Positions 4,903 to 13,266 of a stretch of 24,652 bases of DNA are shown piece by piece. Location: the IMG/VR virus record IMGVR_UViG_2778261572_000014; one strand, 5' to 3'. The first letter of the stretch is position 1; each line of letters opens with the position of its first letter. The stretch is from a virus. Its lineage: Duplodnaviria > Heunggongvirae > Uroviricota > Caudoviricetes. The notes beneath the pieces are model-generated. The model did not search any database and was not told where the DNA came from. It saw only the letters and a list, made by a program, of their open reading frames with translations. Position numbers and translations under genes: made by a program.

Positions 4903-5463
4903 ATGCACAACTTCAAACTCAAACCAATGGGTACACCTGGCGTGGCTCCGGCACATGTAAAGCCATGGACACAACAGGAAGATGAAATGCTTATCTCGCT
5001 TTATCCGGAGTGCAACACGCACCAGATAACTGAACGAATTCAACGAACCCATGACGCAGTTATGCACCGACTTAGTTTTTTACGTGATCGTGGATTGATT
5101 GGCCGCAAGAAAAAGACACTGAGTGCAAAAGAGATCGCCTTTCTCATCGAAAACCGCCGCGCCAGAACAGCGCGGGAACTGGCCGCCGAGGCGGGATGCA
5201 CCCCTCGCACCGTACAAGCACACCTGAATAAACGTGGTTACAGCCTACAAAAATGCGGGGAACTCCATCACCTGACCAAATACAGCGATCACCTGGTAGA
5301 ACTGGTGACTGAACTACATGATGAGCAGCACATGACGTTCGCCATGATAGCAAAACACATTAATCACACACTGCAAATAAAAATCACCACTCGCACAGCA
5401 CGTTCTCTTTACGGTCGCCGAGTCGCTGCTGACGCCGTACTGTACGAGCTATTACCAAACTGA
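4903..5463 (+). CDS. Putative DNA-binding early protein with two HTH-like segments (186 aa)
   Basis: ATG 4903. HTH-like stretches THQITERIQRTHDAVMHRLSFL and TARELAAEAGCTPRTVQAHLNKRG. Confidence 0.5.
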   Translation: MHNFKLKPMGTPGVAPAHVKPWTQQEDEMLISLYPECNTHQITERIQRTHDAVMHRLSFLRDRGLIGRKKKTLSAKEIAFLIENRRARTARELAAEAGCTPRTVQAHLNKRGYSLQKCGELHHLTKYSDHLVELVTELHDEQHMTFAMIAKHINHTLQIKITTRTARSLYGRRVAADAVLYELLPN

Positions 5464-5583
5464 GTGATCATAATGCACACACAAAAAAACCGCTTGCCAT
5501 GCCGCAATCAGTCAGGTTACATTTCCGCTGCACCTCATAAAACGGGTGCCGGGTTTCGCAGCCTGCTGACTACAAGAGCGCAC

Positions 5584-5604
5584 AACCGCGCCAGCGGTTT
5601 TTTT
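5584..5604 (+). terminator. Intrinsic terminator candidate inside the early operon
   Basis: AACCGC-GCCA-GCGGTT stem-loop followed by a T-run (TTTTTTT through 5604), about 120 bp after the 4903-5463 ORF. Confidence 0.45.
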
Positions 5605-5783
5605 GTGCGTACTGTATTGCCACGTTTTTTTCGCGTCAGAATTATGGCGGGGCGTACGGGGCCGACTTCGGTCGGGCCGGGATCTCTTGTAGCCGGTACT
5701 GCGAACCTCGTACGTCTCGCCACCCACAGTTTCGCAGCTCTGGATGGTGAGTTTTCACAACTTACTACAAGAGGCCACATATC

Positions 5784-6014
5784 ATGGCAAACCGCAAACA
5801 GCACCGCACTATCGCGGAGCGTCGTCACATCCAGACTGAAATCAACCGCAGACTTTCCCGCGCATTCCGCGTCGCTAAAATCATGCACATCAATATGCTG
5901 CATGAGCGTAGCTGCGAACTTTCAAACCTCTATTCATCCGCTGTTTTCAGCTATCTGGCGGATGATCTGCGCGAGCTTCAACAGCTCATCCAGCAGCAAA
6001 ACAAACTCCATTAA
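5784..6014 (+). CDS. Hypothetical early protein (76 aa), basic
   Basis: ATG 5784 with AAGAGG 9 nt upstream. Balanced composition, unlike the overlapping S/T/R-rich 5464-6090 frame, which is rejected. Confidence 0.5.
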   Translation: MANRKQHRTIAERRHIQTEINRRLSRAFRVAKIMHINMLHERSCELSNLYSSAVFSYLADDLRELQQLIQQQNKLH

Positions 6015-6086
6015 TTCCTGTTCCGGGCCTTTCCTGCACCTTGCGGCGGGAGGCCTTCGCACATCTGTAACAAGAGGATTGCCGCA

Positions 6087-6452
6087 ATGATTCTCGCCAA
6101 CGACTTTCTTGAATACCTGCTCAACACAGAACGTGATCTTGCCGCTCGCGTGCGTGATCGTTATGACATGTACCTGAAATCCCTGCCTGTACCGCAGCTC
6201 GCTGACGGAAAGATTGTTATTGATGGTCGCTACATGATTGACAGCCACGAGGGAAATTACAGGCTTTACCGCATTGAAGGTGGCACCCCGTCCGTTATTG
6301 GCATTTACCAGCGCCCATCCTCTGCAATTGTCGATGTGATTGCCGACAGCATCCGCATCACACATCGCCATGCCGACACAGAAGACACCGTGCTGGAAAT
6401 TCAGCGGCTGGCTGCCGTCTGCCGCGACACCCTGAATGGCATGACGAAGTAA
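6087..6452 (+). CDS. Hypothetical early protein (121 aa), immediately upstream of A
   Basis: ATG 6087 with AAGAGG 9 nt upstream. Confidence 0.5.
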   Translation: MILANDFLEYLLNTERDLAARVRDRYDMYLKSLPVPQLADGKIVIDGRYMIDSHEGNYRLYRIEGGTPSVIGIYQRPSSAIVDVIADSIRITHRHADTEDTVLEIQRLAAVCRDTLNGMTK

Positions 6453-6458
6453 ATCACT

Positions 6459-9281
6459 ATGACGGCAGAGTACATCAGGGACTGGCAACAACCGCGCCAC
6501 GCAGTGGGACGTGAAGGAACGGGGATCCCCGTTCCTGAATCTGCGCTTTCCTCCTGGCTGGATGCCTACCGGGCAGAGAACGAGCGCCGCCAGGAAATGG
6601 CTGATGCGGCGTTCTCCGCCACGCCGCTGGGCAACCTGATTAATAAAAGCCTGGATGCACAGGAAAAACAGGACAAAACCATCACACTGGCAGGAGACGC
6701 CAGAAAACAGGCACGCGGCGCGGTGGATGAAGCCATGGCCTCGCTGCGCCTGCTGCCGTCCTATCTGCGCGATCCGCTTATTCGCCACCTCTCCTTCCTG
6801 CGCAAAAAACAGGAAGTCGATCGCCGGAAAGGCAAAAAGAGCTGGCAGGCTGAACGCTACGCGCGCGGAACCCTGCGCAAAATATTCGAACGTCTGGATC
6901 GCACTGACGGACACTGGCTGACACCGGGTTATCGCTTCCTTGCCGGACGCGAACGCCTGGACGATTTGCTTTACCTGCCGCAGCTCAACAAACACCAGAT
7001 ACAGACGCTGGCCACCATGACGGCGGCGATGTTCAGCAGCACCTTCGAAAAACTCTGCGATGGCTTTGGCGCGACCGATGGCGAACTGACCATGGATGTA
7101 ACGCTGAAGGCGTATCAGATGCTGGCCCGCATGGCGTTACACCTGCACATCATGCCTCCACATTATGACGCACTGACAACAGATAAAGACCGGAGGAACG
7201 AACCGGACACGGAGCTGCTGCCGGGCGCAATCCTTCGCCTGACCTGTGCGGAATGGTGGAAACGCAAACTGTGGCTGTTACGTTGCGAGTGGAGAGAAGA
7301 ACAACTCCGCGCCGCCTGTCTGGTTTCCAGAAAAACATCACCCTATCTGAGCCAGGACGCGTTAAGCGAGTTTCGCGCACAGCGCGAGAAAACACGCGAT
7401 TTCCTGAAAAGTTTCATGCTGGAAAACGAAGACGGGTTCACGATTGATCTCGAGACAGTGTATTACGCGGGAGTAAGTAACCCGGTTCACCGTAAGGCAG
7501 AAATGATGGCCACCATGAAGGGGCTGGAACTTCTGGCCGAAGCCCGTGGCGACAAAGCGGTGTTTCTGACTGTCACCTGCCCGTCAAAATACCACGCCAC
7601 AACAGAGAACGGTCATCCGAATCCCAAATGGAACGGGGCCACCATGCGCGACTCCAGCGATTACCTGGTTAACACGTTTTTTGCAGCGGTCCGCAAGAAA
7701 CTGAACCGCGACGGCCTGCGCTGGTATGGCATCCGCACGGTGGAGCCTCACCATGACGGCACCGTGCACTGGCATATGATGGTCTTTGCTCATCCGGAAG
7801 AAATCGACACCATTGTGTCCCACACCCGCGATATTGCCATTCAGGAAGATCGTCACGAGCTGGGTGATGATATTACCCCACGCTTTAAGGCGGAGTACGT
7901 CGACGGCTCAAAAGGCACGCCAACCAGCTACATCGCCACCTACATCGGAAAGAACCTGGACAGCCGCGCCGTGGATGGCATCGACCCGAAAACGGGCAAG
8001 CCACGCGTTGACCACGAAACAGGTAAATCAATGGCCGAGAGCGTGGAGCGCGCCATCGGCTGGGCGCGCCTTCACCGGGTCCGCCAGTTCCAGTTCTTTG
8101 GCATCCCCTCCCGTCAGGTGTGGCGTGAACTCCGCCGCCTTGCCAGCCAGATGGCACGCAACCCGGAAGGCCCGCAACGGCTGAAGGATGACGCAATGGA
8201 TGCGGTACTCGCTGCCGCTGATGCCGGATGTTTTGCCACCTACATTGAAAAACAGGGTGGCGTACTTGTTCCGCGCAAGGACTACCTGATTCGCACAGCC
8301 TACGACCTCGCAGATGAGCTGAACGATTACGGCGAACAGAGTGTACAGATTTACGGGATCTGGTCGCCATTCATCGGGGAATCCTCCCGTGTGTGCACGC
8401 ATCCGGATAACTGGAAGCTGGTAAGACGTAAACCGGAAGCGGAAGACAGCGCCCGCGAAAATGGTTTTGACCTTCAGGGCGGCCCTGCCGCCCCTTGGAC
8501 TCGTGGCAATAACTGTCCCCGTGTACAGGAAACGGACAACAACGGGACAGAACAGCCGGAAGAACGGCCAGCACCGTGGCCGCAGCTCCCTGACGGCGTT
8601 GAAGTGAACGAATGGATGCGCTCACTGAAACGGCACGAACGCCGGGCGCTGATGCGTTCGCTTCGTGACAAACAGGCAAAAAACAGCAGTGATGAAATGC
8701 AGAGCTGGACACAGAGCCGCAAACAGCAGCGGCCTTTGCCTGATAACCACGAATTACTCGCTAAAGAATGGCGGGAGTCTGCCGAATCTCTCGGCCTGCA
8801 TATCGGTGAACAGCAGATGCAGCACCTGTTACGGGGCGGCAGCCTGTACGTTGACGGCAGCATCATTGCACCGCAGGGATTTGAAATTGTACGCAAACCG
8901 GATACCCGCCCGGACAGCCGAATCACGCAGCTCTGGCAGCGCCTGAGCCGTAATCACGGCGTAAGCAGCACGGAGATCCGCCATAACCCGGTCGCCGGCT
9001 ATCTGGAACAGCTGGGGATATCAGACCCCGAAGCCGCCGCACGCCTGGCATCCACACTTCAGCAGGACCAGAACACCATGAAAACCCCCGTTACCGTGCT
9101 TTCTGACATGCTGCGCGCCATCCGTGACGCAGAGCACGCACAGAGAATCAGTGAAACCACTGAACGCGCCCGCCGCAAAGCAGACCTGCTGCGGGGTAGC
9201 CTGACCAGTGGAAACAAAAAACAGACAGAAACGGGATTCATAAAACCCGTAAATGAGCAAAAAACGCGCCGCGATATATGA
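6459..9281 (+). CDS. A: Rolling-circle replication initiator endonuclease, P2 gpA family
   Basis: 940 aa. Contains TVTCPSKYH and RTVEPHHDGTVHWHMMVF (HUH-type motif), followed by YIATYIGKN, as in P2 A (LTAPSKYH, RVVEPHHDGTPHWHMMLF). C-terminal third is long and low-complexity. Confidence 0.9.
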   Translation: MTAEYIRDWQQPRHAVGREGTGIPVPESALSSWLDAYRAENERRQEMADAAFSATPLGNLINKSLDAQEKQDKTITLAGDARKQARGAVDEAMASLRLLPSYLRDPLIRHLSFLRKKQEVDRRKGKKSWQAERYARGTLRKIFERLDRTDGHWLTPGYRFLAGRERLDDLLYLPQLNKHQIQTLATMTAAMFSSTFEKLCDGFGATDGELTMDVTLKAYQMLARMALHLHIMPPHYDALTTDKDRRNEPDTELLPGAILRLTCAEWWKRKLWLLRCEWREEQLRAACLVSRKTSPYLSQDALSEFRAQREKTRDFLKSFMLENEDGFTIDLETVYYAGVSNPVHRKAEMMATMKGLELLAEARGDKAVFLTVTCPSKYHATTENGHPNPKWNGATMRDSSDYLVNTFFAAVRKKLNRDGLRWYGIRTVEPHHDGTVHWHMMVFAHPEEIDTIVSHTRDIAIQEDRHELGDDITPRFKAEYVDGSKGTPTSYIATYIGKNLDSRAVDGIDPKTGKPRVDHETGKSMAESVERAIGWARLHRVRQFQFFGIPSRQVWRELRRLASQMARNPEGPQRLKDDAMDAVLAAADAGCFATYIEKQGGVLVPRKDYLIRTAYDLADELNDYGEQSVQIYGIWSPFIGESSRVCTHPDNWKLVRRKPEAEDSARENGFDLQGGPAAPWTRGNNCPRVQETDNNGTEQPEERPAPWPQLPDGVEVNEWMRSLKRHERRALMRSLRDKQAKNSSDEMQSWTQSRKQQRPLPDNHELLAKEWRESAESLGLHIGEQQMQHLLRGGSLYVDGSIIAPQGFEIVRKPDTRPDSRITQLWQRLSRNHGVSSTEIRHNPVAGYLEQLGISDPEAAARLASTLQQDQNTMKTPVTVLSDMLRAIRDAEHAQRISETTERARRKADLLRGSLTSGNKKQTETGFIKPVNEQKTRRDI

Positions 9282-9329
9282 AGCGCGCATAAAACAGGCA
9301 AAAACGGGATTTAAAAACCCCGTAAACGA
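9229..9329. repeat. Two 28-bp direct repeats (24/28 identical), each with internal ACGGG...CCCGT dyad; candidate parC-like centromere/operator
   Basis: R1 9229-9256 AAACGGGATTCATAAAACCCGTAAATGA and R2 9302-9329 AAACGGGATTTAAAAACCCCGTAAACGA, 73 bp apart, directly upstream of parM. R1 overlaps the last codons of A. Confidence 0.45.
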
Positions 9330-9357
9330 TTAATTAATCAACATAAGGAAAATCGAC

Positions 9358-10317
9358 ATGAAAATTTGTATCGACGACGGCTCCACCAACATCAAGCTGG
9401 CATGGACTGAGAACGGCGAACGCCGCAACGCCATCAGCCCGAACAGCTTCAAATCGGAATGGTCTGCGCCGTTCGGTGGCATACAGCCCGCGAACTACAT
9501 GCTTGATGGCGTGCGCTATGGTTTTGATCCGGTCAGCGATCGCTTTGTCCAGACGACCGACACGCAATACCAGTACAGCGATGTGAATGTAATTGCCATT
9601 CATCACGCGCTGGTCAAATCAGGCATCACGCCACAGGAGGTGGATGTGGTTGTCACCCTGCCACTGAGCGAGTATTTCGACACAAACGCACAGCCGGACA
9701 TGGCCAACATCAACCGCAAAAAAGCAAACGTCATGCGCCCGGTGGCGTACCAAAACGGAAAAGCATTCACTATCCGTAACGTACGGGTTATGCCTGAATC
9801 CATTCCGGCTGGTTTTAAAGCACTGGCTGACATGAGTCCGTTTGAATCCCTGCTGATTGTGGATTTAGGCGGAACCACGCTGGATGTGGCAAAGGTTCAG
9901 GGGCAACTGGCAGGTATCAGCCAGGTGTTTTGCGATCCACACGTAGGCGTTTCCCTGATGGCCGATGCCGTACTGTCGGTGATGGCCACTAACGGTATGC
10001 GTACCAGTCACCACATCGCCAATACCATTATCGAACATCGCCATGATGAAGCCTGGCTGCGCCAGCACATCCACAATGACGCGCATTACGCCAGCCTGAT
10101 GGCGGTTATTCGTGAAAAGGAAGAAACACTGAAACAACGCGTGATCCGCGCGCTGGCGGGTTTTTCGGGTTACGGGCGGGTGATGGTTGTCGGTGGTGGG
10201 GCGGAGATTGTGGCACCCGCTATCCGCGAAGCCTGCGGAGTTAATGCGACTTTCATCACGGACGGGGTGCCACAGTTTGCTCTGGTTAATGGGCTGTACG
10301 CAATGGACAAGGAGTAA
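9358..10317 (+). CDS. parM: ParM/StbA-family actin-like segregation ATPase
   Basis: 319 aa, ATG 9358 with AAGGAA upstream. MKICIDDGSTNIKLAW..., YSDVNVIAIHHAL, VMPESIPAG, LIVDLGGTTLD, VMVVGGGAE, LVNGLY run in register with remembered plasmid R1 ParM (MLVFIDDGSTNIKLQW..., LIIDLGGTTLD, VMVIGGGAE, LVNGMY). Confidence 0.85.
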   Translation: MKICIDDGSTNIKLAWTENGERRNAISPNSFKSEWSAPFGGIQPANYMLDGVRYGFDPVSDRFVQTTDTQYQYSDVNVIAIHHALVKSGITPQEVDVVVTLPLSEYFDTNAQPDMANINRKKANVMRPVAYQNGKAFTIRNVRVMPESIPAGFKALADMSPFESLLIVDLGGTTLDVAKVQGQLAGISQVFCDPHVGVSLMADAVLSVMATNGMRTSHHIANTIIEHRHDEAWLRQHIHNDAHYASLMAVIREKEETLKQRVIRALAGFSGYGRVMVVGGGAEIVAPAIREACGVNATFITDGVPQFALVNGLYAMDKE

Positions 10318-10321
10318 ACCA

Positions 10322-10633
10322 ATGACGACACCAACCAGACGGATAAGTTTCTATCTGAAGCCCGCCGCCGTCAAGAACGAAGGTGAAGCATGCGCCTGGC
10401 TGGACAGCCTTACACCAGAAGCTCGCAAAAGCGGCCAACGCGTGGCTTTTCTGGCCGGGCTGGCACTTCTGAAAATGAATCCGGCAGAGGCTTACCGACT
10501 GGCTGCATGGGCTGATGATGAGGCGTTATCAGTGACACAAACCAGGGCAGAACACCACATGTTACAGCCAGCGCCCACCGCACAGATAACCAGCCAGCTA
10601 GCCGGAAATATCCGGGCGTTATTTCCTGAATAA
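10322..10633 (+). CDS. parR: ParR-like centromere-binding adaptor (ribbon-helix-helix)
   Basis: 103 aa, ATG 10322, 4 nt after the parM stop, AAGGAG upstream. RRISFYLKPAAV...LDSLTPEARKSGQRVAFLAGLALL...IRALFPE parallels R1 ParR (RRTIAFKLNPDV...LDSIPQGERSRLNRAALTAGLALY...LRSLFPKE). Confidence 0.7.
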   Translation: MTTPTRRISFYLKPAAVKNEGEACAWLDSLTPEARKSGQRVAFLAGLALLKMNPAEAYRLAAWADDEALSVTQTRAEHHMLQPAPTAQITSQLAGNIRALFPE

Positions 10634-10639
10634 CACAAC

Positions 10640-10661
10640 ATCAGGGCGAGTTCGCCCTGAT
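10640..10661. promoter_or_regulatory. Perfect 22-bp palindrome between parR and the PP-loop gene
   Basis: ATCAGGGCGA-GT-TCGCCCTGAT (9-bp arms), no U-tract; followed 12 bp later by AAAGGAGG and the GTG start of the next gene. Confidence 0.4.
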
Positions 10662-10685
10662 AACACTATCCAAAGGAGGCAAACA

Positions 10686-11693
10686 GTGAGCATCATTCAG
10701 CGCTGCCGAGCAGAAAACACTTTTAATTTGGTTTCCATGTCTGGCGGGAAAGACTCACTGGCGCAATGTTTGTATGCCATAGAAAACGATATACAGCATG
10801 AGCGAGTGTTTGCTGATACGGGACACGAACACCCACAAACGATGGAGTACCTTGACTACCTGGAACAAAAGCTGGGCCCAATTCGTCGCGTAAAAGCCGA
10901 CTTCACTCGCCAGATAGAAGGTAAGCGCAAATTCATTGCTGAAAAATGGCCAGTATCTCTTGTTGCAGAGTGCGGAATGACGCCTGATGAAGCAGCGGAA
11001 CGTGTTGCTCGTGCGCTGGAAATCCTCCACCCAACCGGAAATCCATTTCTTGACCTGTGCATGTGGAAAGGTCGTTTCCCGAGCACTAAAGCGCGGTTCT
11101 GTACATTCGAACTGAAACACGAACCAGTGCGCACTCAGGTGGTGCAACCTGCGCTTGATGAATATGACGAAGTTATCTCCTGGCAGGGCGTGCGTGCTCA
11201 GGAATCGCCATCGAGGGCACGCCTGCAAGTGTGGGTGGAGGATGCGGACAATACCCCCGGATTGCATGTCTATCGTCCGATTCTCAACTGGCTACATGAG
11301 GATGTTTTCGCTATTGCCAGGCGTCACGGGATTAAACCCAACCCACTCTACCAACAAGGATGCAGCCGCGTTGGGTGTATGCCATGCATTCATGCCAGAA
11401 AATCTGAACTGGCGGAAATTTTTCAGCGCTGGCCAGAGGAAATCGCCAGAGTGGCAGAGTGGGAACGATTAGTTGCAGCCTGCTCTCGCCGCGGCAACTC
11501 AACGTTTTTCCCGTCAACTCATGACCCGCGCCGGGCAGAATGTCGCATAGATGTTGTTACCGTAGACAGCTACGGAATCGAAACCTATCGCGACTGGGCA
11601 ATGACAACCCGGGGCGGCGCTCAATTTGACCTGCTGGCGAGCACGAACGATAAGGCGGTGTGCAACAGTGTTTATGCGGGAGTATGCGAATGA
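10686..11693 (+). CDS. PAPS-reductase-family PP-loop ATP pyrophosphatase-like protein (DndC/CysH-like fold), function unknown
   Basis: 335 aa. GTG start 10686 with GGAGG 6 nt upstream; no upstream in-frame ATG. N-terminal VSMSGGKDS PP-loop, FADTGHEHPQT, WQGVRAQESPSRA, and C-terminal cysteine cluster CSRVGCMPC. Confidence 0.8.
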   Translation: MSIIQRCRAENTFNLVSMSGGKDSLAQCLYAIENDIQHERVFADTGHEHPQTMEYLDYLEQKLGPIRRVKADFTRQIEGKRKFIAEKWPVSLVAECGMTPDEAAERVARALEILHPTGNPFLDLCMWKGRFPSTKARFCTFELKHEPVRTQVVQPALDEYDEVISWQGVRAQESPSRARLQVWVEDADNTPGLHVYRPILNWLHEDVFAIARRHGIKPNPLYQQGCSRVGCMPCIHARKSELAEIFQRWPEEIARVAEWERLVAACSRRGNSTFFPSTHDPRRAECRIDVVTVDSYGIETYRDWAMTTRGGAQFDLLASTNDKAVCNSVYAGVCE

Positions 11694-11768
11694 ACAGCAT
11701 GAAAATATTGTTACCCGACATCTGATTTTACTTCTTCAAATCAGGGCAATAATCACGCATCGCCCTGC

Positions 11769-11795
11769 TGCACAATAGTGCACAAATTTGCACAA
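11769..11795. repeat. Three TGCACAA direct repeats at exact 10-bp phasing
   Basis: TGCACAA at 11769, 11779 and 11789, followed by a T-run, in the non-coding interval where P2 architecture places cos and the cargo-locus promoters. Confidence 0.4.
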
Positions 11796-12167
11796 TTTTT
11801 TTGAACGACTTTTTACCCTTCCGGCCCGCATGGCGGCTGGATCCGTCAAGGATCCGTGCGTGCACAAAAAAACGCGTTTTTTCTGCGCGCAGGTGACGGG
11901 GGAACAGCCCGCGTTTCTGGGGGTAAATAGCGTTCCCTTAACGATGTCGCAGCGACACGACAGAATGGCCGTATTTCTCACGCTGAGCGTGAAAAATACG
12001 TGAGGGATTCTGGTTTGATGGGGTGAAAGGTAAGGCCGTCAAAATCGCACTGAGGCGGCGAGAACATGCAGTCAGCGCAGTGGGATTGCGTAAGAATCTG
12101 ACCGTCGATGATGGCAATAAGCAGGAAAGCATCGTGAAATTATCTGACTGATACAGGAGCTGGAGAG

Positions 12168-12192
12168 TCGGGGCATAAATTTTTTATGCCCC
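12168..12192 (-). terminator. Strong stem-loop 28 bp downstream of Q; terminator or packaging-region element
   Basis: CGGGGCATAAA-TTT-TTTATGCCCCG, a perfect 11-bp inverted repeat; lacks a clean U-tract on the Q strand. Confidence 0.35.
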
Positions 12193-12219
12193 GGCGAAGC
12201 AGCAGACAAGCGAAGCGCG

Positions 12220-13266
12220 TCAGGATGTGGGCTGGGTATCTAACAGTGCGTAAGGGTTAAAGCGGATCACCTCTTCGCCAAGCCAGTCATTGATGTGCTT
12301 CATGGCCTCCATGACGGGCATCAGCTCGTTAATTGCGTAAACCCGCGCGGCCTTCTCCACATCACCAAACGCACTTTTTTCGCCCGGCATCGCCCCCATC
12401 AGTTGCGGCGGAACGCGGTGCGCAGCCAGCACATCATCACGGGATGCCGCCTTAACATTCATGAACTCATCCTTTGCGGTGATCTGCTGGAACGGCAAAA
12501 TTTGCACCCCCTCTTTGCCCCCGTTGGGCGCATGAATGAGCACGTTTTTAAACGCACCACCACCACGTGCCCCCTGTAGCGTTTCTTTCAGGGAGTCCAT
12601 GCTTTCGCGGTTTACCTGCGCTGCACCGATGTAGATGATGCACCCGGCGTGGGATCCGTTGTCGTAGTACAGTTTTCTGAACATGTCCGCCGAATGAGAA
12701 AGGCTGGCCGAGAGTAATGCGCCAAGATATTCCGGCATGCCGTAGATTTCCTGGTTAATATCCGGATTCATCAGGTGGCACACTTTGCCAGGACGAAACT
12801 GAAACGCGTCCTTGCCATCCTGCACATACCACCATGATTCAAGATCGCTTCCGCGTCGCATGTATTTCGCCAGGGCGTGCCGTAATTTAAGCGGTTCGCC
12901 GAGCATATTGCTCCGAAGCTCAAGGAATGCGTTACCGAACACAAACCAGTCCAGCGCCAGCGCCGAGAAATCCTGCCGGGAAAGCAGCGGGTGCGGAATA
13001 TAGCAGCCGAGCAATACATTGCGCTTAAAGTAAAGCGCAGACTGATGCCAGGACGTTTGCCGGGCAGCTCTTGCCAGACCGTACCAGTTCACCGGGGTTT
13101 CATACCACCGCCCGTTATCAGCACAGTACATATTGTCCAGCAGGTCATGCCCGGTCAGGCGATAAGGACCATCAAATGTGAATGCACTGAGCGATGATTC
13201 TTTCCTGAGCGCATCAGCGAGATCAATGCGTGAACTCATGCGCACTTTTTTATTTTTTCTGCTCAT
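12220..13266 (-). CDS. Q: Portal protein, P2 gpQ family
   Basis: 348 aa (P2 Q about 344 aa). Minus strand directly downstream of P, with its ATG overlapping the P stop. Position and size match the P2 Q-P capsid operon. Confidence 0.85.
   Translation of the reverse strand: MSRKNKKVRMSSRIDLADALRKESSLSAFTFDGPYRLTGHDLLDNMYCADNGRWYETPVNWYGLARAARQTSWHQSALYFKRNVLLGCYIPHPLLSRQDFSALALDWFVFGNAFLELRSNMLGEPLKLRHALAKYMRRGSDLESWWYVQDGKDAFQFRPGKVCHLMNPDINQEIYGMPEYLGALLSASLSHSADMFRKLYYDNGSHAGCIIYIGAAQVNRESMDSLKETLQGARGGGAFKNVLIHAPNGGKEGVQILPFQQITAKDEFMNVKAASRDDVLAAHRVPPQLMGAMPGEKSAFGDVEKAARVYAINELMPVMEAMKHINDWLGEEVIRFNPYALLDTQPTS

Follow-up and report, generated by a model that had tools for sequence, protein, structure and literature searches.

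A PAPS-reductase-like PP-loop protein of a P88-like prophage: a member of the phage 186 Orf84 family, distinct from CysH by sequence and possibly a DNA-directed sulfurtransferase

The 24,652-nt stretch of DNA analysed here (the window; IMG/VR virus record IMGVR_UViG_2778261572_000014) is, judged by homology, a P88-like (Xuanwuvirus, P2-related) prophage, and it carries between its parMR genes and its portal gene a reading frame for a 335-aa protein of the phosphoadenosine phosphosulfate (PAPS) reductase-like PP-loop class. The usual annotation of such a protein is the sulfate-assimilation enzyme CysH, and our sequence comparisons indicate that it is not CysH. We consider it highly probable that the protein belongs to an ATP-using, iron-sulfur (Fe-S) enzyme class other than CysH and we propose, with a probability of roughly 0.4, that it is an early-expressed adenylating sulfurtransferase that is directed at DNA and serves in counter-defence. 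Sequence similarity makes the gene an ordinary member of an old, widespread and uncharacterised phage protein family, that of phage 186 Orf84, and not a new one; the copy in the window would in itself not surprise a specialist, and the interest lies in what the family does. Few phage genes are labelled auxiliary metabolic genes (AMGs) in viromes as often as the 'PAPS reductases', which are read there as sulfur-assimilation helpers, whereas this family looks like a DndC/SspD-like adenylating sulfurtransferase of early infection, which contradicts that common reading.

The coding sequence, whose end coordinate includes the stop codon, opens with a GTG codon preceded 7 nt upstream by the Shine-Dalgarno (SD) sequence AGGAGG. 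In NZ_CP136025 the Prokaryotic Genome Annotation Pipeline places the start at an internal ATG (M18), which removes the strand ahead of the PP-loop; we prefer the GTG because homologues align from residue 1-3. PAPS_reduct (PF01507; E 2.2e-36, with 125.9 bits where 22.5 suffice) is the sole Pfam domain found in the protein, a match that is far beyond chance and that, together with the N-terminal SGGxDS signature and a Rossmann-like fold, places the protein in the PP-loop ATP-pyrophosphatase superfamily. An earlier note, made from the letters of this DNA, had assigned the protein to the same fold family and had quoted four motifs, all of which are present in the translation as described: SGGKDS (residues 19-24), FADTGHEHPQT (42-52), GVRAQESPSRA (168-178) and CSRVGCMPC (226-234). 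The features of the gene are the following:

10686..11693, plus strand: coding sequence of the PAPS-reductase-like PP-loop protein, 186 Orf84 family / PHROG 424 (open reading frame list, Pfam, homology)
10673..10678, plus strand: Shine-Dalgarno sequence AGGAGG, 7 nt ahead of the GTG (sequence)
10740..10757, plus strand: PP-loop SGGKDS codons (residues 19-24), canonical ATP-pyrophosphatase form (translation, conservation)
10815..10829, plus strand: DTGHE codons (residues 44-48), a nucleotide-binding motif common to the reductases of PAPS and of adenosine phosphosulfate (APS) (conservation, alignment)
11097..11117, plus strand: FCTFELK codons (residues 138-144), with C139 and K144; C139 is a candidate Fe-S ligand (conservation)
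11187..11216, plus strand: GVRAQESPSR codons (residues 168-177), the G.R..ES..R motif (conservation)
11367..11387, plus strand: RVGCMPC codons (residues 228-234), with the CxxC pair C231/C234, candidate Fe-S ligands (conservation, alignment)
11661..11690, plus strand: codons of the C-terminal tail CNSVYAGVCE (residues 326-335), with C326 and C334 (conservation, model)

The suggestion that this is a novel lone enzyme has to be given up. Phage 186 Orf84, also named CP84, is 81.7% identical in amino acids over residues 3-335, the similarity being full-length and taking in the helical insert, the C-terminal extension and the CSSxYGLCE ending, and an identical protein is encoded on at least 21 public contigs, each ordered gpA-ParM-ParR-X-portal, where X is the gene discussed here. 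PHROG 424, labelled 'phosphoadenosine phosphosulfate reductase; moron/AMG', matches with E 1.7e-82. A protein of Yersinia phage P37 is 83% identical, and proteins of Burkholderia phiE125 (gp57, ~46%), Stenotrophomonas S1, Serratia Parlo and Pseudomonas Riah follow at ~44-47% identity; counted at 50% identity, the clusters returned by an exhaustive search of 1.84 billion representatives number at least 362 at E<=1e-30 and 977 at E<=1e-10. Orf84 and the P2/186-like, lambdoid and phiE125-type relatives have the same length and the same motifs as the window protein. The difference is one of position: the window gene is a lone cassette after parMR in the slot between gpA and gpQ, whereas the 186-type gene sits in the early operon directly upstream of gpA. 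The RefSeq record of 186 gives Orf84 as of unknown function and not essential, and states that translation through the end of orf84 appears to be needed for translation of the A protein.

Residue conservation was read from an alignment of 123 family representatives, 40-57% identical to the query, and additional patterns from a set of 48 full-length, diverse family sequences. Among the 123, the PP-loop SGGKDS is conserved at 89-94%, D44, T45, G46 and E48 at 95, 90, 88 and 98%, and G168, R170, E173, S174 and R177 at 99, 98, 98, 96 and 98%; N219-P-L-Y222 is kept at 90-100%, and K239, E260 and W304 at 90-98%. C139 and K144 of the segment F138-C139-x4-K144 are both found in 100% of the sequences, and the two cysteines of R228-V-G-C231-x-P-C234 in 100% and 98%. 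At the C-terminus (family consensus CSSxYGLCE) G332 reaches 90%, C334 98% and E335 89%; C326 is present in 78% of the representatives and is, like C334, invariant in the 48-sequence set, and C125 stands at 81%. The cysteine cluster that the earlier note saw in CSRVGCMPC is thus upheld for C231 and C234 and falls for C226, which is conserved in just 7%; C139, C326 and C334 had been missed. In the 48-sequence set the residue after C139 is T or S, leaving one Cys alone at the CC position of APS reductase. From these patterns, C139, C231 and C234 most likely hold a predicted 4Fe-4S cluster. The ratio of non-synonymous to synonymous substitution rates lies at 0.03-0.09 (comparisons with two loci, L003 and L016, were disregarded as saturated or mis-registered). 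The gene is genuine and intact, and purifying selection on it is strong.

In an AlphaFold2 model (mean predicted local distance difference test score, pLDDT, 82; core above 90) the protein consists of a Rossmann-like PP-loop core, a helical insert of ~60 residues (74-135) and a helical C-terminal extension of ~100 residues; the tail at 319-335, which carries C326 and C334, has a pLDDT below 50 and is predicted to be flexible or disordered. The closest solved structures are all PAPS-reductase-like PP-loop enzymes, namely APS reductase 2GOY (score 14.1), CysH (13.7), CysD (13.5), FAD synthase (12.9), TtuA (12.3) and, further off, QueC (8.0). In a profile search of PDB sequences RVGCMPC aligns to SIGCEPC of 2GOY, with its Fe-S ligands C228/C231, where CysH has SVGD; the DTG of the window protein is matched by that of CysH and APS reductase, and SGGKDS falls on their degenerate loops (SSSFG.. 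/ SFSGAED). The C139 segment FCTFELK presumably corresponds to the CCxxRK motif of APS reductase. The window protein thus differs from 2GOY and from CysH (1SUR, 6VPU) in that its PP-loop is of the canonical ATP form and theirs are degenerate, and from APS reductase and CysH in general by the helical insert and the C-terminal extension.

The curated models tell the protein apart from CysH as well. All CysH models stay below their cut-offs (PRK02090 at 62.8 against 154 bits, TIGR00434 at 43.3 against 165.1, TIGR02057 at 39.9 against 254.2), with matches that cover only residues ~150-250, and the APS reductase model TIGR02055 reaches 49.9 of 235.3 bits. The C-terminal catalytic motif of CysH is ECGLH, in place of which the window protein ends in ...VYAGVCE. 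The four-Cys CC...CxxC pattern of APS reductase is not found either, for the CxxC aligns, only C139 stands at the CC position and the C-terminal motif differs. We conclude that the protein is not CysH because the curated models are missed, the PP-loop is of the ATP type, the C-terminus is different and the gene neighbourhoods (see below) are of another kind. Orthology to a housekeeping CysH, which the earlier note had singled out as fatal to its proposal, is excluded by the width of these misses and by the ATP-type PP-loop.

In sequence searches the closest specific families are the SspD and BrxP models. PADLOC SspD scores 86.6 bits over profile positions 70-202 of 277 and a second stretch, so that most of the model is covered; BrxP is weak (47.7 bits, profile positions 212-335 of 779), and DndC matches residues 132-214 only (30.7 bits), the curated DndC model TIGR03183 reaching 22 of 290.4 bits. 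Across the 48-sequence set SspD matches every member (best E 4e-28), as does BrxP (best 2e-26), and DndC matches 35, in agreement with the DndC-type kinship proposed in the earlier note. SspD, BrxP and DndC are likewise of the PP-loop ATP-pyrophosphatase class, although the scores of the window protein lie far under the level of membership in any of them. Their systems, moreover, are multi-gene, whereas the window gene is phage-borne and single, without a nucleoside triphosphatase (NTPase), a DndE, SspB or DUF4007 partner or a dedicated desulfurase. No Dnd, Ssp, Brx, Que or Dpd partner (dndD, dndE, dndA and dndB included) and no DndD/SspC/BrxC-type NTPase was found in the window or in eight loci of identical arrangement, which bears out the earlier description of the gene as stand-alone. 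In the window there is also no sspA, sspB or sspC beside the partial SspD match, no DUF4007 fusion or neighbour, no brxC, pglZ or brxL, and no methyltransferase; the combination expected of 7-deazaguanine synthesis, a QueC domain with queD, queE or dpdA as neighbours, was not found. DndC is described as an ATP pyrophosphatase of the PP-loop class in which three cysteines hold a 4Fe-4S cluster and a cysteine dyad is proposed to pass on sulfur from DndA/IscS (PMC10853773), and its cluster ligand C280 is essential for phosphorothioation (PT) (PMC11662687). C139, C231 and C234 with the tail pair C326/C334 parallel this arrangement, a resemblance of pattern and not a demonstrated equivalence.

The genomic surroundings of the relatives are consistent. 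Among the 80 closest IMG/VR loci (81-98% amino acid identity), 66 have the gene directly upstream of the replication gene A (gpA), on the same strand and in the early lytic operon; its upstream neighbour is a Dam methylase in 32 of the 80, a TraR/DksA zinc-finger gene in 19 and Orf83/DUF5405 in nine. The nearest relatives at the DNA level, 98% identical in nucleotides, are three lambdoid IMG/VR contigs (5986-7008), in which the gene stands between replication protein P and DUF1064 on the upstream side and an Ead/Ea22 gene downstream. Homology to them begins at window position 10671, the AGGAGG travelling with the gene, and they share nothing else than SD and reading frame (window 10671-11693), their flanks differing from the window and from one another; the gene therefore moves as a one-gene cassette. 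In phiE125 an N4/N6 methyltransferase, the PAPS-like gene and a ParB-like gene stand consecutively, followed by replication genes; in phage S1 a methylase lies two genes ahead of the PAPS-like gene, in Parlo a Dam lies two genes behind it, and a Cupriavidus prophage has the order helix-turn-helix (HTH) gene, PAPS-like gene, YbcO, replication initiator. Lambdoid, Burkholderia and Cupriavidus phages hold the gene among replication and nin-type genes. When two genes on each side were scanned with Pfam in 28 dereplicated loci, DNA methyltransferases of the C5, Dam and N4/N6 types were the commonest family (six loci), followed by RusA, GPA, DnaB, dUTPase, ParB_N, NinB, NinG and VRR-NUC. No neighbour of sulfate or cysteine metabolism was found in the ~110 loci surveyed. 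The consistent context is an early, replication-proximal module of temperate phages.

On the reading that we favour, ATP would bind the PP-loop and the enzyme would, by analogy with DndC and SspD, adenylate an oxyanion of a nucleic-acid substrate with release of pyrophosphate, after which sulfur would displace AMP. The sulfur could come from the host cysteine desulfurase IscS and be passed on by the tail cysteines C326/C334 and/or by the free iron of the three-Cys cluster. Expressed with the early replication genes, the enzyme would act on replicating phage DNA, and the benefit may be escape from host restriction or from phosphorothioate-sensing defence, or else subversion of the host phosphorothioation machinery; it is the early, replication-linked, methyltransferase-rich context that suggests both this substrate and this benefit. 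In the window the gene has entered the gpA-gpQ hotspot of a P88-like prophage as a one-gene cassette. In favour of this proposal are (i) the ATP-type active site, the cysteine pattern and the matches to SspD, BrxP and DndC, (ii) the replication and methyltransferase contexts of the relatives, (iii) the layout at the window locus (the strand of gpA-parMR, an SD of its own, no sigma-70-like promoter in a scan of 9200-12300 and a terminator-like site after the gene), the place of orf84 in the early lytic operon of 186 and the purifying selection, and (iv) a precedent in Vibrio, where a phage PAPS-domain::Dam fusion (p0018) and the gene next to it jointly confer an escape from the Dnd system of the host (Piel et al., bioRxiv 10.1101/2021.05.05.442762), a result that is cited as such in bioRxiv 10.64898/2026.07.27.740549. 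As in p0018, where the PAPS domain is joined to an orphan Dam, the family is associated with Dam in the 32 close relatives mentioned above.

Several observations weigh against this proposal. We found no biochemical or genetic study of the 186 Orf84 family in the literature, which on this family consists solely of speculation (AMG or DNA modification) and of the Vibrio PAPS::Dam anti-Dnd result, and beyond that fusion we found no other experimental phenotype for a phage PAPS-reductase domain. The Vibrio protein is an analogy only: its PAPS domain is short (~170 aa), of a different subclass, and was tested with a second gene. The four established PT systems all need a P-loop NTPase and a DNA-recognition component, and gut isolates with a lone PAPS-reductase gene show no PT dinucleotides (PMC12914056). 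The window protein has no recognisable DNA-binding domain in Pfam and is near-neutral (isoelectric point 6.2). The structure comparison advised by the earlier note, while it confirms the PAPS-reductase-like fold, does not separate DndC-like from APS-reductase-like enzymes, and neither a DndC nor an SspD structure is among the PDB matches. The promoter scan cited in favour (none found where 2.6 were expected) is weak evidence, the consensus scan being crude. The slot in a defence hotspot fits a defence gene expressed by the lysogen equally well. Finally, the sole complete E. coli genome with the same arrangement (NZ_CP136025.1, 13387-14394) has a pseudogene, a stop at codon 304 replacing the conserved W304, so that in this lysogen the gene is dispensable for the prophage. 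It is because of this counter-evidence that we rate DNA-directed counter-defence so much lower than the enzyme class.

A bolder form of the same proposal is that the single polypeptide, with the housekeeping IscS, marks replicating phage DNA with a phosphorothioate or a thio-base. It would do so without a DndD/SspC-type NTPase and a DNA-recognition subunit, and might use the nicks or single strands of the adjacent initiator (gpA, O/P), as SspD uses the SspB nickase. Alternatively, it would join a host Dnd/Ssp system and thereby label phage DNA as self. We regard this form as rather unlikely. Were it true, thousands of phage 'cysH AMG' annotations would stand for DNA-modification or anti-defence genes, and a protein that modifies DNA or disables PT immunity single-handedly would be a new minimal modification or anti-defence enzyme and call for the re-annotation of AMGs in viromes; should it prove to be a true reductase after all, the AMG view would be upheld. 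As phage 186 and inducible E. coli prophages carry the gene, the function of the family, a three-decade-old question, is tractable.

The position of the window gene bears on the alternatives. Compared with P88 by blastn, window positions 9300-10664 and 11769-12250 align and the interval between them does not, so that the non-homologous part is a cassette of 1104 bp with a single gene. In other P88-like prophages the slot holds different cargo (Ead/Ea22-like genes, a 'carboxylate-amine ligase', DUF4760 and others), the order gpA-parM-parR-X-gpQ being kept while X varies. The gpA-gpQ interval is the P2 hotspot, with 1,650 arrangements in 18,150 occurrences (Rousset et al. 2022, PMC9122126), and it houses old, tin and other anti-phage systems (PMC9122126); the earlier claim of a phage cargo locus is borne out on both counts. 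The main text of Rousset et al. and the part of its supplementary tables that was available to us contain no PAPS reductase (PMC9122126). The rest of the window is a P2/P88-type backbone, with integrase, repressor, Cox, early genes, gpA, ParM/ParR, portal, terminase, capsid, lysis and tail genes; the terminase follows the portal on the minus strand, and P2-type head, lysis and tail genes come after it. Around the cassette we find:

6459-9281, plus strand: gpA, replication endonuclease (Pfam Phage_GPA)
9358-10317, plus strand: ParM (Pfam StbA_N/ParM_N)
~10322-10633, plus strand: ParR/StbB (Pfam Plasmid_stab_B)
10640..10661, no strand: perfect hairpin with a 10-bp stem just after parR, on the left flank of the cassette and also in P88
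10665..11768, no strand: single-gene cargo cassette, 1104 bp (blastn breakpoints against P88)
11739..11803, plus strand: hairpin of the cassette 3' end (11742-11767), then a terminator-like stem-loop with a T-run in the flank (11778-11803)
12220..13266, minus strand: portal gene gpQ, right border of the gpA-gpQ hotspot (syntenic E. coli annotation; Phage_portal in the identical loci)

The gene lies on the strand of gpA, parM and parR, 52 nt after parR, and is preceded by an SD of its own. With no run of T after it on the plus strand, the hairpin at 10640-10661 is not an obvious terminator, and the stem-loop at 11778-11803 is the likely end of the transcript. Given the strand, the SD, the lack of a promoter in the scan and this terminator-like stem, the gene is probably the last of the gpA-parMR transcript or transcripts. 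In 186, orf84 is within the early lytic operon and translationally coupled to A. The three genes gpA, ParM and ParR are context backbone and not partners: of 5426 complete E. coli genomes, 1447 have ParM/ParR, beside many different cargos and almost always on the chromosome. The pairing with parMR implied in the earlier note was accordingly rejected, the module serving as backbone to many cargos and ParM being absent near all 80 close relatives.

The strongest of the alternatives is that the gene defends the prophage: its product, made in the lysogen from the parMR transcript or from a promoter that escaped recognition, would damage phages that superinfect, for instance through modification or adenylation of their nucleic acid or through consumption of ATP. 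The slot, with its variable cargo among P88-like prophages, is an anti-phage hotspot (PMC9122126), PAPS-reductase domains occur in PT-based defence and in type 4 of bacteriophage exclusion (BREX), and in a PANGU-like candidate system a PAPS reductase is partnered by a nucleoid protein. The close homologues, however, are in early lytic operons in 66 of 80 cases and the others are among lambdoid replication and nin genes, all of which are positions of early genes that benefit the phage; moreover the gene lacks a restriction or effector partner as well as a sensor, the scan showed no promoter-like site, and the cargo of most relatives' slots (Ead/Ea22-like) is itself material of the lambdoid early region. 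We therefore consider a defence function unlikely. Of the two roles left open by the earlier note, defence or evasion, it is counter-defence or another early phage function that the data support better, and defence less.

It is also quite unlikely that the enzyme has a target other than DNA, as it would in the thiolation or other modification of tRNA or RNA of host or phage, in the adenylylation of a small molecule (as by FAD synthetase) or in an IbrA-like regulation of prophage genes. Phage phi458 has a family member whose annotation is that of a transcriptional regulator, and the window protein has no obvious DNA-binding module, both of which would suit such a role. The phi458 protein, however, carries PF01507 only, and the window protein has no THUMP, PUA or other RNA-binding domain. 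IbrA itself combines PAPS_reduct with a C-terminal DUF3440 and is paired with the ParB-like IbrB; membership was rejected, as neither the window protein nor its phi458 relative has DUF3440 and no ParB-like gene lies in the window. Besides, the best matches to specific families are to the DNA-PT enzymes SspD and BrxP, and the neighbours are DNA methyltransferases and replication genes and not tRNA genes.

That the protein is a true APS or PAPS reductase, raising the supply of sulfite and cysteine in infection or in the lysogen, is how the literature handles phage PAPS reductases (PMC13369170; bioRxiv 10.64898/2026.02.18.706556; PMC2920897), and the fold, the DTG and G.R..ES..R motifs, the CxxC aligned to Fe-S ligands and a C-terminal Cys, which sits on a flexible tail as does the catalytic one of CysH and APS reductase, are in keeping with it. 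We nevertheless hold it to be very unlikely: the curated CysH, PAPS and APS reductase models are all missed widely, the PP-loop is the ATP-binding SGGKDS and not the degenerate loop of the reductases, CSSxYGLCE takes the place of ECGLH, no sulfate-assimilation gene was found beside it in the ~110 loci, the consistent neighbours being replication genes and DNA methyltransferases, and enterobacterial hosts already own a cysH. Least probable by far is that the gene is inert baggage kept in 186-like phages through its translational coupling to gene A, as the 186 record (translation needed for A, gene non-essential) and the E. coli pseudogene might suggest, for it is under strong purifying selection, keeps its catalytic-type residues at 98-100% across sequences 40-55% identical, and is intact without coupling to gpA in the window, in the lambdoid contigs and in Burkholderia and Cupriavidus phages.

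Further observations concern the family and its relatives. Domain fusions were given up as Rosetta stones, because of ten longer relatives scanned only one, the 560-aa P0370, shows anything methyltransferase-like, a weak match at its N-terminus, and the rest just have longer inserts. The PADLOC model PDLC03333 (MTase_II) matches residues 132-211 of the window protein and five of the 48 relatives; since what it matches is the PAPS-reductase core, its seed includes PAPS-reductase::methyltransferase fusions. The family profile weakly matches the PDB chain 21fy_C, 'PptA' (E 3e-4), a solved protein of 270 aa that has a degenerate PP-loop (HFSCGAPS) and shares with the family the CxxC and the helical segment following it. 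A literature search found no paper describing it and the match is left unexplained; the idea that PptA is the PAPS-reductase homologue of IncC plasmids, described at the end, was rejected, as the two are different proteins. In the three lambdoid contigs (L010-L012) the gene downstream reuses a near-identical SD context (AGGAGGCAACCAGTG), which suggests that cassettes are exchanged at short conserved translation-initiation sequences.

Others concern the prophage. Its ParM/ParR (StbA/StbB) module (9358-10633) is of plasmid type and yet a conserved backbone of an integrative P2-like prophage. Two copies of a 42-nt element, 83% identical and 73 nt apart, lie at window positions 9215-9256 and 9288-9329, one inside the 3' end of gpA and the other in the gpA-parM intergenic region, each holding a hairpin AACGGGATT.A.AAAACCCGT; the pair is a candidate parC-like centromere or ParR operator for the prophage ParMR. 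The gpA protein has 940 aa, of which Phage_GPA covers only residues 179-503, leaving a C-terminal part of ~430 residues with no Pfam match; by record coordinates the A protein of 186 has ~694 aa. On the other side of the cassette, 11769-12219 is a conserved, cos-proximal non-coding stretch rich in repeats and palindromes, with TGCACAAT twice, GGATCCGT twice (11839-11857), 15-nt inverted repeats at 11857-11891 and 11970-12000 and a perfect 11-bp hairpin at 12169-12193, which are probably cos or terminase-binding and terminator elements. Upstream of gpA, 4903-6090 is a second small variable spot, with reading frames of 186 aa (weak HTH matches) and 208 aa (weak Ash-family match) that are variably present among otherwise identical prophages.

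Outside phages, a distant PAPS-reductase-family gene (~25% identical) is found in the IncC plasmid NC_020180.1 at 5842-6957. Its position a few kb from the record start is conserved in IncC and other plasmids, with 1479 plasmid records of which most (1117) are conjugative; by sequence similarity, PAPS-reductase-like genes recur in the backbones of mobile elements beyond phages.

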